Below, one piece after another: positions 43 to 34,700 of a DNA stretch of 64,000 bases. How positions within the stretch are numbered: the first letter of the stretch is position 1; every line of letters begins with the position of its first letter. The DNA is taken from IMG/VR virus record IMGVR_UViG_3300020733_000010, positions 32,001-96,000 of that record. One strand, written 5' to 3'. Under the pieces are notes generated by a model that was given only the letters and a program-made list of their open reading frames with translations, searched no databases and was not told the origin of the DNA. A program made the translations under genes and the position numbers. This stretch comes from a virus.

Positions 43-501
43 TCAAGCATTTTTTACAAGTTTGTCAATGCGTTTGACCATTTGTTTTTCAACATAGATC
101 ATTGCACGGGTAGCTAAGAGGCGTTCACGGGCGAACGCTTCCTGTTCCCAAGGACGCTCATGGTATTCTTTTAGAATACGCTGACCAAACCAGAGATTTT
201 TGTTTCGTTTGCTCAATGATAGTTGACCTTTTGCAATTTGTTTAACATGAACCATTTCATGTGCGAGGCACAAGATCAAGTCACATTCACTAAGACCACC
301 ATCTACAAACATTTGCATTTCACGGTCACCTGTTTTGGCAACCATTCCATTGTTGCCCTCACGCTTGCGTAAGCCTGGGGCATTATAAATTGTTAAACCG
401 TAAGTGCTATTCTCTAACTTCAATTCTTTGGTCAAGAATGTAGTCACGAGGTCAATAACGATTCGGCGTTTGACTGAACTAGTTACGATTTCAATTTTCA
501 T
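43..501 (-). CDS. putative zinc metallopeptidase (HExxH), early gene
   Basis: LAHEMVHVKQ zincin motif plus downstream PWEQEA; ATG lies 6 nt after a sigma70 -10 box. Confidence 0.7.
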   Translation of the reverse strand: MKIEIVTSSVKRRIVIDLVTTFLTKELKLENSTYGLTIYNAPGLRKREGNNGMVAKTGDREMQMFVDGGLSECDLILCLAHEMVHVKQIAKGQLSLSKRNKNLWFGQRILKEYHERPWEQEAFARERLLATRAMIYVEKQMVKRIDKLVKNA

Positions 502-507
502 ACTGTA

Positions 508-536
508 AGTATAGCAGGTGTTGGATTATTCGTCAA
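508..536 (-). promoter_or_regulatory. sigma70-type early promoter
   Basis: Minus strand TTGACG-N17-TATACT, immediately upstream of the ATG at 501. Confidence 0.75.
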
Positions 537-537
537 G

Positions 538-1059
538 TCAGACAAAAGTATTAACTAATTGAGTAACATATTCCTCACTACTGTCACCCAAATCTTTTTC
601 GTCTGTATAGACTGCAACATCGCCAAACTTTGCTAGTTTATGACCTGCGGCATCGTTGTCACAAACTGCAACAACTTTTCTATTCAAACAAGTAAGCCAG
701 TTGCGTAAGTCAGGGCTGGGGTTGTTACTTAGTACTGCTAAAGCACTAACACCGCGACTTGTCAATCTTGCGGCGTCAAACAAGCCCTCTGTCAAAAAGA
801 CAACATGTGGGGTTAAATGTAAACTTTCAACACCCCAAACTGCCAATGTGGGTTGTTTTCTGTATGTATAATACTTACCTAGCTTGGGATTGTTGCTGGG
901 CTTTTTCTCGCCGAACCGACGATACTGCTGGTATCCACAAAAATTTCCTGACAAGTTCCAAAGGTAAAAGGCGGCAACATCGTTCTCAAGATCCAGCATA
1001 GGACGATGGAGTTCAAGATCCAAATGTCGCCTTTTCAGATGTTCAACTAAGGTTTCCAT
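538..1059 (-). CDS. stand-alone Toprim-domain (DnaG primase-like) protein
   Basis: VFLTEGLFDA...VCDNDAAG Toprim motifs. Start reassigned to ATG 1059 (METLVEHL), which follows the promoter at 1087-1115. Confidence 0.75.
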   Translation of the reverse strand: METLVEHLKRRHLDLELHRPMLDLENDVAAFYLWNLSGNFCGYQQYRRFGEKKPSNNPKLGKYYTYRKQPTLAVWGVESLHLTPHVVFLTEGLFDAARLTSRGVSALAVLSNNPSPDLRNWLTCLNRKVVAVCDNDAAGHKLAKFGDVAVYTDEKDLGDSSEEYVTQLVNTFV

Positions 1060-1080
1060 GTGCTTTTTACTCGCTTTTGA

Positions 1081-1086
1081 TAAATA
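1081..1086 (+). promoter_or_regulatory. T4-like late promoter (TAAATA) for the homing endonuclease
   Basis: GATAAATA, the same motif found upstream of structural genes in this window. Confidence 0.6.
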
Positions 1087-1115
1087 ATTATAGCACAAAG
1101 GGTAATTTGTGTCAA
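1087..1115 (-). promoter_or_regulatory. consensus sigma70 promoter for the intact Toprim gene
   Basis: Minus strand TTGACA-N17-TATAAT. Confidence 0.8.
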
Positions 1116-1177
1116 TAAAAATGTCCTTCGCGGTGGTGGAACACCCAAGGACTCTAACGCTACGAGGAGCAATCAGC

Positions 1178-1711
1178 ATGAATATTTATTCAAAATCAAA
1201 TCCGCCTATTGGATTTTATGTTTACGCATATCTAAGAGAATCCGATAATACCCTTTATTATATTGGAAAAGGTTGTAATACCAGAGCCACTGAAAGACAC
1301 TCAGTTGCGGTTCCTAAAATAGAATCAAAGATAATCATAGTAGAACAAAATCTAACTGAAATAGGTGCTGTGGCTATTGAACGCAGGCTTATTAAATGGT
1401 ATGGTAGAAAAGATTTAGGGACAGGTATATTACAAAATAAAACAGACGGTGGGGATGGTGGCAAAACAACATCTACTGAACGCCGAAAAGAAATCAATAA
1501 AAAAATGTGGGCAAATGGTGTGTTTGATAATAGACCAAAGCCAACTCAACAAACTATTGATAAAATCAAAGCAAAAAGAGCATTGCAGGTTATAACAAAA
1601 GAATCAAGAGAAAAATCAGCGGCTAAACAGCGTGGTCAACGAAGGACTCCGGAACAAAAAGAAAAAATGCGAATCGCTGCGTTAAACAGAAAATCCAAAG
1701 TCTCTAGATAA
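1178..1711 (+). CDS. GIY-YIG-family homing endonuclease with NUMOD3-like basic C-terminal repeats
   Basis: FYVYAYLRE...YYIGKG...R...ERRLI...[10 protein letters not shown]; basic helical tail; GAGGAG RBS before ATG 1178. Confidence 0.8.
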
Positions 1712-1823
1712 ATTGACCACTCAAGTTATACAAGTAAAATGTAGCCAAACCCTCATCTTCGTCTAGCATAGGACGATGCAGTTCTAAGTCTAAATGACGA
1801 TTGAGCAGGTGTTCTCTTAACAT
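1704..1823 (-). pseudogene. orphaned 5' fragment (39 codons) of the Toprim gene
   Basis: Hand translation [39 protein letters not shown] aligns with METLVEHLKRRHLDLELHRPMLDLENDVAAFYLWNLSGNF. Confidence 0.85.
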
Positions 1824-1829
1824 AACCAT

Positions 1830-1858
1830 ATTATACTATGTTTGGGCATTAGTGTCAA
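1830..1858 (-). promoter_or_regulatory. consensus sigma70 promoter of the orphaned Toprim fragment
   Basis: Minus strand TTGACA-N17-TATAAT, 6 nt before ATG 1823. Confidence 0.8.
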
Positions 1859-1896
1859 CCTTTCAGCTAAATACAAAAGTACTAAGGAATTTCACT

Positions 1897-2994
1897 ATGG
1901 CATGGCCTGCTAATCCAACGAACGGACAACAAACAACAATCAACGGAACTACATTTCAATATGATTCTGCAAATGCGGCATGGAATCGTGTTTTTACATC
2001 TATCAATAACAACTTGCAATATGTAGGACAGATTTCAGCAAACGCACAACCTAACATTGTTTATGCCAATAACTTAACTACATTGGGTACACTAACAAGT
2101 CTTTCATTAGCCGGCAATGCTACAGTTAGTGGGGCAAACGTTATTACTGCTAACATCTTTACAGGTGCATACGCTAATGGAAATAGCAATATCAACATCC
2201 CAGCAAGTAATGGCAACATCAATTTCACTAGCGCAGGTAATGCTAATATTTTGATTGTTACTGGTACAGGTGTAAACGTAGCAGGTACGTTGAACATAGG
2301 AACAAACACAGCAAACGTAGGTAACTTGGGTGTTACAAGTAACGCAACTGTAGGTAACTTATTGTTTGGTACAGGTGTTGTGTCTGGTACAGGTAACGTT
2401 GTTGCTGGTAACTTATTGGGCCCACATGCTAATGGAAATAGTAACGTTAATATTCCCGCAGCCAACGGAAACATCACATTCACTAGTGCAGGTAACGCAA
2501 ACATTCTTGTAATAACTGGCACCGGTGCCAACATTACAGGCACTGGTAACATTACAGGTAACGTTGCAGTTGGTGGCAACTTAACTATTGCAGCAAATAC
2601 AACACATAACAACTGGGCTGGATTCTATTCTTCACAAGATAGAATGGTTCCATTAACAGGTGCTACTGGTGTTGTCAACCATGATATGAGCCAAGGTGCA
2701 TTGTTCTATCATACAAGTCCTGCTGCTAACTTTACACCAAACTTTACTAATATTGCAACAACATTTAGTAACGTAGTCACTGTTGCAACATTGTTGATTG
2801 TGCAAGGCACTACTGCATACATGCCACAAGCAGACGCTACTAACGTACAGATCGGTGGAAGTAACGTTGCAGTAAAATGGGTATACGGTGCAGCACCAAC
2901 TGGCACAGCAAGTTCTACCCAAATTGTTGCATACTCAATCATCAACAACAATGGTACTTACGCAGTACTAGGACAAAGTTCATTCTATCAATAA
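1897..2994 (+). CDS. virion structural / tail-fibre protein, Gly-Asn-Thr rich
   Basis: Late promoter at 1868-1873 and AAGGA RBS; MAWPANPTNGQ start; internal duplication ANGNSN(I/V)NIPAxNGNIxFTSAGNANILxxTGTG. Confidence 0.65.
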   Translation: MAWPANPTNGQQTTINGTTFQYDSANAAWNRVFTSINNNLQYVGQISANAQPNIVYANNLTTLGTLTSLSLAGNATVSGANVITANIFTGAYANGNSNINIPASNGNINFTSAGNANILIVTGTGVNVAGTLNIGTNTANVGNLGVTSNATVGNLLFGTGVVSGTGNVVAGNLLGPHANGNSNVNIPAANGNITFTSAGNANILVITGTGANITGTGNITGNVAVGGNLTIAANTTHNNWAGFYSSQDRMVPLTGATGVVNHDMSQGALFYHTSPAANFTPNFTNIATTFSNVVTVATLLIVQGTTAYMPQADATNVQIGGSNVAVKWVYGAAPTGTASSTQIVAYSIINNNGTYAVLGQSSFYQ

Positions 2995-31773: not shown

Positions 31774-34700
31774 TCAATAATTCTGGTCTGATAAGAATAG
31801 TGAAACAGGTGAATCACTGATTTGCAATGGATCTCCGTAGCTTGCGCTGAAGACATTAGTGTTCCAAACTTGGTTATAATAAACATCTGGTACTTTCTTA
31901 GTAATGTTAATTCCATAAACAATTTCATATTGTGCATGGTCCACTACCGGAGTTCCTTGAACACCCCTGATTAATCCAGAAATTGTATTATTTACTAAAT
32001 CCACTGAACTAAACTTGACACGTTCACTACCGATTAAGATAATGTCACCTGTACCTAATGTGATTGTAACTTGATTACCTAAATCAACACTGTCTAAGAA
32101 CACTACTGCCGGTTGACCGTCAATAATCTCAAAAGAGTAAGATCCTGAATCTAATTCAACTTGTCTTGATACATCATAAACTGTCAGATATTTCACATCT
32201 TTTGGGTTACATTGAACATAAGCTAATAATGTACCATTACTTGAAACTACTGGTATTGTTTGTACTAATGTTGAAATAACGTTACTTACATTATTCAAAT
32301 AGATTGTATTATCTGTTGCAACCAAGTCTTGAACTAACCATGTTCCATCACCTGGATTAGTTCTATAAACTTCTCCCATGTTTTGCTTATCTACTGTCAA
32401 GATGAAACTTGATTCTCTAGGAGAAGCACCAGTCACCATTGCAGTTACAACTACAACATCATCATATTGAATATCAGTCAATATTGATAACTTATTACCT
32501 GCATTGAATACTAGTAATGATGGATCAAGACGTTTACCGTTTACTGTTACCCATGTTCTATTACCATCTTGATAAACAATACTTGGCATAGTGCTTGGAA
32601 CAGATGGGCTAGAAATAACAAGACTGTTACTGTCTAACCAACCAAAACCACCACCTAAATATGTGCTGATTGAATTACCTTGAACTGGTGTATTGAAGGT
32701 GCTATCATGGTATAGATAAACGATTGAACTATCAGTTCCACTAACTTTTACATAGTACAAACTATTGTTCATTTCAATTGATCCATTCAATCCATTGAAA
32801 CGCAATTCATTACCATTAGAGAATGAAGTGGTTCTATCAAATTTAACTTTTACCGGAGTAACTGTGTTATCAACATAAGTAATACCCCATACACCTACTG
32901 TGACTGAGTATGTTGTTGATAGCCATTGTCTACTTGTACTATTGAATGTAGTCACGGCAATCAAGTCGTCAGCAGTTGCAAAACCAATTGTTAAACGTTG
33001 ACCGCTCAATGAATAATCAACACCCGGTACTAATCTTAATCCATTACGTTCAACAATCATGTTATTTGGATTAGCACCACCCACATAACCACTTAATGTA
33101 TATGGACCTGACCCAGTGAATACTTGTGTTTCAGGTATAGAATAGAAGAATTCTGTATTGTTTTCCGCAGTAATAGATGTTGTTAATATAGCAAACGTAA
33201 TATATGTTGTTGCGTTGTCATATACGGTGTTGAACACTAACTTCATTGAGTTATCCTCAGTAAAATCAATGTAATAATCAGTTTGGTAAACTTGTTTTTC
33301 ACCATTGATATACACTACAATATTTTCACGTCCAGTTGCATTGTCTGTGACAATTTCTTGATATTTGAAATCAAAGATAAAGCAAGAGTTTCCAGAAGCA
33401 GGATCTATTTGTAGTGGTAACAATTCATTGCTATTTCTAATCAGTTGACGACCGTCACCCACTTCATAGGCTTCAATCATAACTGATTGTGTTTTTGATA
33501 TACTAATACTCAATGTAACAACTTTTGTAACCCAATTCACACTATATGAGATTGTGCTATTTGCAGTAGTTACATTTTCATATATACGAGTTGCTAACTT
33601 TGTAGTGTCATCAATGATATATACACTGATTTGTGCAGGTGTGGCTGTAAGATTATCAAAATTTATTGACAAACTATTGTCCAATTTACCTACCATTGAT
33701 TGCATTAAGAAACCAGTATGACCATAATAGAAATGTGAAACTGAAGGAGCTAAGTCCCATGCACCTGCATTGTCTACATACATGTCCCAATAGCTTCCTG
33801 GACTAGTTTTAACTTTCATAGATAGGTTGTCAGAAATTAAACCTGCAACCATTTCTTCTGGTCCATAACCATATAAGAAGTCGCTACCTTGAACGACAAA
33901 ATTAGGTTCAGCATATTGTTGATTAGATACAATTGTCCATTGCGTTGCATTACGTGAACGCATTACTAAACCATAATCACCTGTTACATAGAAGTACGTT
34001 CCATCAAAATATACCTTAGTAAAGTTATATTGAGTCACATCACCTTTAATGTTATGAGTAGGAACTCCTGTAGACATTACGGTATATGAAACTCCGTCTA
34101 AACTGGTTAGAATAATTCCGTTATCACCTACAAGAACATATGTACTCAATCCATATGCAGCAGAACGGATAGTTTCTGTAGTGCTACCTGAAGTAATTTG
34201 TCCAGTTCCCCAGTTACTTCCATTCAAGCTGTAATATATACTTGCGTTTTCTCCAGCAACAATGATAGTAGAATTTGAATTTGTCACACAATATAATGTG
34301 TGTGAAGTTATATTAGGTACAAGTTTATTCCAAGTACCACTATTGTTGATTACAATTCTACCAAATTTTGTAATTGTTGGGGCGGCAGTTCCTGCGCCAC
34401 CTGTAACTTCATAACCAACACCAACTGCAATATAACCTATAAAGTGATTACTATTGATATATGCAATACCAAATAACTCATTGTCAAGTCTGCTACCAAA
34501 GTCAAACACACTATTAAATGTTATACCATCATTTGCATAGTAAATCTTTTTACCAACTACATAAATGTCAGCTCCATTAGTTGCAGTTGCATTCAACTGT
34601 ATTAGGTTTTCGATACTAATTGAACTATCGTCATATTCAATTCTGTCAAAGCCAATGTCGTCAAATTTAATCTGAGAACCCACAGTATTCCAAGAAACTC

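Follow-up and report, generated by a model that had tools for sequence, protein, structure and literature searches.

Probable one-sided, intron-free homing of a GIY-YIG-type endonuclease gene that replaced the promoter and 5′ end of a phage primase-like gene

The window analysed here is a stretch of 64,000 nt (positions 32,001 to 96,000) of the IMG/VR virus record IMGVR_UViG_3300020733_000010, a 178-kb record from an uncultured phage; coordinates are window positions unless they follow the number of another contig. At 1858–538, a free-standing GIY-YIG-type homing endonuclease gene (HEG) on the plus strand separates two versions of the start of a Toprim/primase-like gene that is read from the minus strand. 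From upstream to downstream on the minus strand, the order is a native promoter (P1), a 5′ stub, the plus-strand HEG with its leader, a second promoter (P2) and the intact primase-like gene (Table 1). Most probably, at roughly 0.8 in our estimate, the HEG entered the primase-like gene by one-sided, co-converting, intronless homing and left the old start of the gene behind as a stub. Four observations carry this reading, namely the mosaic structure of the working gene, the linkage of the HEG to a promoter and a variant 5′ end, a recurrent break point, and derivatives that have lost the HEG. The layout is found in more than one assembly. An independent ENA contig of 880 nt (L193) is 99.9% identical to window 1026–1905, which covers P2, the HEG, the junction, the stub and P1, and a contig from a different sample (L003) has the same junction with the HEG open reading frame (ORF) deleted. 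As both carry this junction, the locus is not an assembly artefact, and a chimera as the origin of the layout is rejected.

The intact gene (1059 to 538, minus strand, 173 aa) matches PHROG 849, ‘DNA primase’ (E 6.6e-37, profile positions 148–338 of 435), and scores 18.6 bits with Pfam Toprim_2, under the 22.1-bit cut-off of that family; no primase zinc-finger part was found in the 178-kb record. Relatives were drawn from metagenome and ENA/JGI/Logan contigs (L-numbered); a search of INPHARED phages gave weak, short cyanophage matches only and no annotated relatives. Two of the contigs, L004 and L005, are sister phages with flanks 96–97% identical to those of the window and without HEG or P2. 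In successive 60-nt bins, the identity of the working gene to L004 is 66, 58, 76, 98, 98, 95, 96, 98 and, in the last bin, 73%, and its identity to L019 is 96, 91, 81, then 75% and lower. Hence nt 1–147 are L019-like and the body is L004-like, with the switch at nt 148–163 coinciding with the conserved GEKKP codons. From the position of this switch, the inserted block is window 913–1711 and holds the HEG with its leader and P2, plus a foreign coding stretch of 147 nt. The 5′ segment (‘A’) is 83–100% identical across all HEG-linked alleles, whereas the gene bodies are just 33–86% identical. The P2 spacer is near-identical in L101, L181, L182, L190–L193 and L195 and homologous (>85%) in L183–L189; P2 is found in neither L004 nor L019, and an exact search of viral contigs for P2 had the L003 contig as sole match. 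Collectively, these comparisons support the proposal of the initial annotation that the insertion brought a new promoter and 5′ end: both P2 and nt 1 to ∼147 of the working gene are foreign and appear to have arrived along with the HEG.

The displaced start lies on the far side of the HEG. The stub ORF extends from 1829 to 1704 (41 codons), and its first 39 codons match the start of the Toprim/primase-like family (PHROG 849, profile positions 149–197). Its 5′ part is 97% identical over 117 nt to the 5′ end of the L004 gene and 96–97% identical to the stub of L003; to the intact copy in the window it is 60–63% identical at the DNA level, with 26 of 40 residues shared. Upstream of the two ATGs, no similarity is seen except in the promoter hexamers. 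An exact-sequence look-up of the 41-aa stub found nothing on record. In L004 and L005, the upstream neighbour, P1 and one intact gene are collinear with the window, and the stub-type 5′ end stands inside that gene. This collinearity, together with the 97% identity, supports the stub being the native 5′ end of the gene, and the proposed comparison with endonuclease-free alleles in related phages thus gave the expected outcome. P1 itself is identical in L003, L004 and L005, and the window sequence differs 2–3 bases upstream of it. Both promoters lie on the minus strand and are perfect, as initially described, matching a sigma-70-type consensus, by which they were scored, at all 12 positions. P1 would now drive only the stub, reading antisense into the HEG. 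The insertion looks young, since the divergence of the stub from L004 is about the same as that of the flanks.

At the junction, homology of the stub to L004 and to intact alleles stops after GGTCAA (window 1713, nt 117, codon Q39), and the frame continues F-I-stop in the reverse complement of the last HEG codons. Since F and I derive from the junction, the native stub end is NLSGQ and not NLSGQF. The original 5′ end had been placed at 1823–1710; the stub is real, its start is moved to 1829 because relatives also begin MVML, and its native end is moved to 1713. A break exactly at the endonuclease stop codon had also been described. In the window the fit holds within 1–4 nt, the last homologous stub base lying 1 nt from the HEG TAA (1709–1711), and it is specific to the lineage of the window: one or two extra genes lie between stub and HEG in L181 and L182. 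The HEG 3′ ends of the window and of L183 part 1–4 nt after the TAA, and both have TTG at +2 to +4 (TAA-N-TTG). Because TTG is the complement of the terminal CAA of the stub, the joint may have used a 3-nt microhomology (CAA/TTG) to the donor flank.

Stub breaks recur at nearly the same position in other alleles. In the window, L003 and L193, an L004-type stub breaks after GGTCAA (nt 117) and is joined to the HEG stop codon. In L181 and L192, a stub of L012/L006 type breaks after the same GGTCAA and is joined to the leader of a 123-aa gene, which separates it from a long-form HEG. In L182, a stub of a further type breaks ∼7 nt earlier, after AATCTGAC (nt ∼110), and its junction is with an 89-aa gene, beyond which lie a 165-aa gene and then the HEG. 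Different recipient alleles with different donor-side joints at one target position point to a defined DNA end there, i.e. a cut site. At least two one-sided events, probably three, would be independent. The lineage-specific fit at the HEG stop and the existence of stub-free forms (no stub is left in L183-type and L195 contigs) argue that the architecture is not a fixed, purpose-built cassette; it looks like a recurrent by-product of one-sided break repair with co-conversion. Among the stub-free arrangements, L183–L189 and L197 have a short-form HEG beside a 156-aa gene, and L190 has a long-form HEG beside a gene of the L181-type family; these look like donors or clean replacements. That gene family (L181:4698–5069, L182:4641–5138, L190:1109–1765) has conserved ends (IRDYINLIENAQ...EAIAKINQITR) and a variable middle, and is convergent with the long-form HEG, whose last 14 nt it overlaps.

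Two contigs preserve derivatives without the HEG. L003 retains the stub and P2 but has lost the HEG ORF; removal of 498 nt between two AAAATC repeats (window 1192–1197 and 1690–1695) leaves an in-frame remnant of 11 codons, MNIYSKSKVSR followed by a stop (L003:3845–3885). L019 corresponds to L181 minus 1,260 nt between the two start codons, i.e. minus the stub, the 123-aa gene, the HEG and P2, so that the P1 leader runs at CATG into a 5′ end of cassette type (L019:3990–4010 versus the reverse complement of L181:3512–4771). The L019 gene would thus be HEG-free and presumably resistant.

Linkage extends over diverse gene backgrounds. The HEG relatives at 87–100% identity (L101, L181–L193, L197) all lie 117–118 nt upstream of, and divergent from, a 173-aa homologue of the primase-like gene, and all have the P2 spacer and the first ∼150 nt of that gene in common (83–100% identical). 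The block of HEG, P2 and 5′ segment is found in at least four gene-body lineages, 33–86% identical to each other (window/L004-like, L101/L182, L181/L019 and L183–L189); a primase-like gene beside the HEG was found at none of the ∼160 more distant HEG-family loci. When the gene bodies of 120 cluster representatives of the primase-like protein are placed on a tree, the A-type N-terminus, present in 43, requires at least 11 changes, against 33–40 for the five shuffled label sets listed. Within the segment, nt 106–147 of the cassette allele differ from L004 at 22 of 42 positions, and NLSGQLVGYQQYRP becomes NLSGNFCGYQQYRRF. The substitutions include changes of otherwise conserved residues (Q39N, L40F, P48R and the residue after it), and codons 39–40 and 48–49 are unusually variable across the primase-like family. 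The block NLSGNFCGYQQYRRF is presumed to be cleavage-resistant. L195 is informative in this respect: it has the same P2 and leader spacer, followed by an unrelated 185-aa HEG ORF (PHROG 314), and its primase-like gene combines a cassette-type first ∼93 nt with an ordinary QLCGYQQYRPEG site. Because the ordinary site is kept beside an unrelated HEG, the variant block tracks the HEG studied here. L195 (2324–3003) apparently records the exchange of one HEG for another behind a common leader. This contig has no stub, and the HEG 3′ end abuts the spot where the −35 box of P1 would start.

The same architecture occurs at an unrelated gene. The two flanks of every HEG-family locus were compared with each other by tblastx, which gave 10 matches among 176 loci. 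It recovered the window, L181, L182 and L192, i.e. the primase-like cases with both flanks screened, and in addition L103/L104. In L103 (2164–3948; also in L104), a 52%-identical HEG with NUMOD3 lies between a 74-codon stub of a GT2 glycosyltransferase gene and an intact GT2 gene. The stub is 83–100% identical per 30-nt bin, mostly 96–100%, to the HEG-free L198 (2989–3702), whereas the intact gene is 41–76% identical to L198 for ∼290 nt and then mostly 80–100% identical (93–100% in the first 180 nt past the switch). In L103 (2893–2918), a TTGACA −35 box directly adjoins the intact late-promoter box of the HEG, TATAAATA. A related HEG is thus apparently the builder of the same layout of stub, antisense HEG, promoter and mosaic gene at a second target. 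The initial annotation had suggested a search for the cassette elsewhere and had proposed an intron-less way to invade a gene; the second is supported by the presence of the block in at least four backgrounds, the recurrent stub breaks and the GT2 replicate that this search provided. Weaker flank-to-flank matches were obtained for L144 and L075/L076. In L156 (177–1070), another HEG of this family lies within a small gene and is flanked by a duplicated stretch of 17 residues (D-I/F-YL..LKQQLF); this arrangement may be a 3′-end version of the same process.

Table 1. Features of the primase-like locus in the window
Feature	Position	Strand	Evidence
P1, native promoter of the primase-like gene	1830..1858	−	TTGACA-17-TATAAT, 12/12 consensus match
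Relic 5′ end of the resident L004-type allele, codons 1–39, ending NLSGQ	1713..1829	−	97% over 117 nt to L004
Junction, stub frame continues F-I-stop	1704..1712	−	Reverse complement of the last HEG codons
Free-standing GIY-YIG-type HEG, 177 aa, short form	1178..1711	+	TAA stop 1709–1711; PHROGs 15526, 10829, 314 ‘homing endonuclease’
Conserved HEG 5′ leader	1119..1177	+	Degenerate late-promoter box, hairpin (1123–1152), CTCTAACGCT (1152–1161), ribosome-binding site
P2, promoter apparently arriving with the cassette	1087..1115	−	TTGACA-17-TATAAT, 12/12 match
Foreign 5′ segment A, nt 1–147 of the working gene	913..1059	−	96/91% to L019, 92–100% to L101, 58–66% to L004
Crossover zone, nt 148–163, cassette-type to resident L004-type	897..912	−	Base-by-base alignment
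Resident body of the Toprim/primase-like gene	538..896	−	95–98% to L004 over nt 180–480; PHROG 849, Toprim_2

The HEG varies between sister phages, being present in the window and not in L004 or L005. In its protein, the GIY-YIG motif reads FYVYAY...YYIGKG. An alignment of 29 members has Y14, Y16, Y27, Y28, G30, R36, E68 and N87 invariant, and H41 is kept in at least 90%; NUMOD3 is present in 20 of the 29 relatives and not in the window protein. A profile search of the PDB returned GIY-YIG proteins only, with a weak E of 0.018. The AlphaFold model (pLDDT 79) has a helical C-terminal half, and the Foldseek probability of its GIY-YIG matches is 0.84–0.98. The leader is common to ∼50 HEG-family loci (e.g. 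L025:2929–3006, L043:2917–2994). In relatives it combines a late-promoter box of sequence ATAAATA with a 10-bp hairpin, 7 of whose 10 stem pairs show compensatory changes, and with the invariant CTCTAACGCT, after which come a ribosome-binding site and the ATG. An Rfam search of the leader matched no family. In related HEGs, the ATAAATA box occupies a position overlapped here by the −35 box of P2. In the primase-linked HEG lineage this box reads TCAATAAA (window 1106–1122), and the C in it supplies the base that makes the −35 box of P2, on the opposite strand, a full TTGACA. A paralogue of the HEG, 41% identical and with the same leader, is free-standing at G000:C1:14616–15098 (L002:1486–1995), between the single-strand DNA-binding protein gene of the phage and a virion structural protein gene.

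A sequence of events by one-sided repair can be proposed, in which the place of cutting, the resistance of the variant block and the route of repair are deduced from the patterns above. Usually, the HEG would sit just upstream of the Toprim/primase-like gene and divergent from it, tightly linked to P2 and the variant first ∼147 nt. In a mixed infection, the enzyme would cut a HEG-free L004-type allele near nt 110–117, at the codons NLSGQ/LVGY. The downstream end would lose ∼30 nt of mismatched sequence and invade the donor where homology resumes, at GEKKP (nt ∼148), and repair synthesis would copy the donor 5′ segment, P2 and the HEG, sometimes with further DNA beyond the HEG. Because the donor has no homology to the upstream side of the recipient, the new strand would be joined illegitimately to the unresected upstream end, 1–4 nt past the HEG stop and possibly via the CAA/TTG microhomology. 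As an outcome, the old promoter and codons 1–39 would become a dead stub, and the working gene would be driven by P2 and carry a substituted block that should resist cutting. Later, the HEG was lost by microhomology deletion in L003, and the whole insert was lost in L019 with retention of the variant 5′ end. An existing stub could also serve as a second homology arm for ordinary homing among close relatives, which would fit the window and L003, whose cassettes are 98–100% identical and whose upstream flanks are only ∼90% identical.

Several points weigh against one-sided homing by this enzyme. Cutting of DNA by the HEG protein, and the position of the cut, are deduced from sequence. The Pfam GIY-YIG family (PF01541) matches neither this protein nor any of its 29 relatives, and although the top 10 Foldseek hits of the AlphaFold model are all GIY-YIG domains (PD-T4-3, UvrC N-terminal domain), they are weak (E 0.02–0.1). 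P1 and P2 are consensus matches only, and their activity is presumptive. No donor with exactly the HEG and flank of the window was found among the contigs, the best stub-free relatives being 88% identical. The L182 junction might come from an L181-like one via a later insertion, which would leave two events, not three. Finally, the boundary shared at nt ∼148 could in part mark where sequence homology permits recombination of any kind, whether a HEG takes part or not.

This last point leads to an alternative in which recombination independent of the HEG exchanged promoter and 5′ segment at the conserved GEKKP-coding stretch, the HEG being a passenger. It would account for the downstream boundary that all backgrounds share at this stretch and for L019 and L195, which have an A-type 5′ end without this HEG. 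Against it, stubs of different allele types break at most 8 nt apart inside the most substituted block, this block co-occurs with this HEG and is missing where another one sits (L195), and a second HEG of the family gives the same architecture at the unrelated GT2 gene. A passenger role is therefore unlikely. Even less credible is an origin in which promoter and 5′ end were duplicated locally in tandem, the copies diverged and the HEG later inserted between them, tandem duplication being a finding that the initial annotation had named as overturning its proposal. Two copies of ∼40 codons, each with a perfect promoter, might suggest such an origin, yet they are only ∼61–63% identical, each is 96–97% identical to a different intact lineage (the stub to L004, the working copy to L019/L101), and the regions upstream of the two ATGs are unrelated. 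Tandem duplication is contradicted by the mosaic structure of the working gene and is rejected.

A further alternative concerns the stub, which may have been retained as useful, either because antisense transcription from P1 damps HEG expression or because the 41-aa peptide has a role. In favour of this, the window, L003 and L193 all keep an intact P1, and the ATAAATA box seen in related HEGs is gone from this HEG lineage. The stubs of the window and L003 differ at four positions, all synonymous; as a sign of selection this was set aside, since recombination with intact alleles explains it equally well. Moreover, the stub end of L192 is decaying, L183-type contigs, L195 and L019 manage without a stub, and the insertion, as noted above, looks young. 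A function of the stub thus seems improbable, and one-sided homing, with the stub as its relic, is the preferred explanation.

Some variation at the edges of the locus accompanies these features. The final ∼48 nt of the primase-like gene also differ between the window and L004 (73% identity), and a gene of 128–132 aa that lies between the primase-like gene and a 152-aa gene in L004, L005 and L019 (L004:4519–4905) is absent from the window (501–538). On the other side, a repeat-rich, hypervariable, fibre-like neighbour on the plus strand (1897–2994) encodes 365 aa here and 670 aa in L004; past its first ∼110 nt, beyond window 2006, it departs sharply from the sister phages.

Known systems share parts of this process. 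The free-standing HEGs of T4 (SegB, SegF, SegG and MobE) spread by intronless homing (PMC2988022, PMC2330249). As in Seg-type homing, a free-standing GIY-YIG-type HEG lies between genes and varies in presence among close relatives, the presumed cut falls in a conserved neighbour gene, flanks are co-converted and the donor allele is substituted at the site. Unlike in Seg-type homing, the upstream side was apparently joined without homology, so that the target promoter and first 39 codons were duplicated rather than converted, and the co-converted tract contains a complete replacement promoter and start codon, an outcome repeated in nature. For T4 intron homing, experiments have demonstrated one-sided illegitimate repair of breaks at microhomologies, which was proposed as a route of mobile elements to new sites (reviewed in PMC2988022). 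Homology on a single side and junctions at microhomologies are common to both cases; whereas the T4 evidence comes from an intron in an engineered plasmid–phage system, the present case is a natural population record of a free-standing HEG with products fixed in genomes.

The closest parallels in gene structure are of mitochondrial origin. Mobile-ORF hybrids are described for atp6 of Allomyces macrogynus and for atp6, atp9, cox2 and nad3 of Glomus (PMC3630166). There too, an endonuclease ORF arrives with a foreign, diverged version of the gene end that it displaces, and the original end, near-identical to that of a sister species, persists; copy identity is 63.5% in Glomus atp6 (PMC3630166) and ∼61–63% here. 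The mitochondrial hybrids replace the 3′ (C-terminal) end, with the ORF on the same strand, downstream of the host gene or often in frame with it, and need no promoter. In the present case, replacement affects the 5′ end and a promoter, the HEG is read from the opposite strand and the host genome is that of a phage. HEGs also split phage genes, as mobE does in nrdA of Aeh1 and mobA in gene 39/60 of T4, where both halves are expressed and reassemble into an enzyme (PMC2988022). These likewise are free-standing HEGs inside what relatives have as one gene; unlike in those genes, the duplicate here makes the gene whole and the old piece is redundant. No phage precedent for a HEG-linked 5′ duplication was found in the literature searched.

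It is tempting to generalize from the two targets. About evenly balanced, in our judgement, is the broader proposal that this GIY-YIG HEG family uses 5′-end replacement as a regular intron-free route into coding regions, with a mobile unit made of the HEG, an outward promoter and a resistant start. Such units would enter by one-sided homology and leave promoter-bearing stubs; they would drive an arms race over the codons targeted, and other HEGs could take them over via the shared structured leader.

For mobile-element biology and phage genome mosaicism, the locus would provide a natural multi-genome record of a free-standing HEG reaching genomes that lack homology to it on one side, something so far seen mainly in laboratory work on T4. 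It makes a precise prediction of the cut site, at nt 110–120 of the HEG-free allele, and offers natural pairs of predicted sensitive and resistant substrates. In annotation, it would explain short promoter-bearing pseudo-starts and mosaic 5′ ends in phage genes. It also suggests that neither intron nor intein is needed for a HEG to rewire a replication gene at its promoter and N-terminus, and the parallel to the C-terminal hybrids of fungal mitochondria suggests a general solution for selfish nucleases landing in coding DNA.

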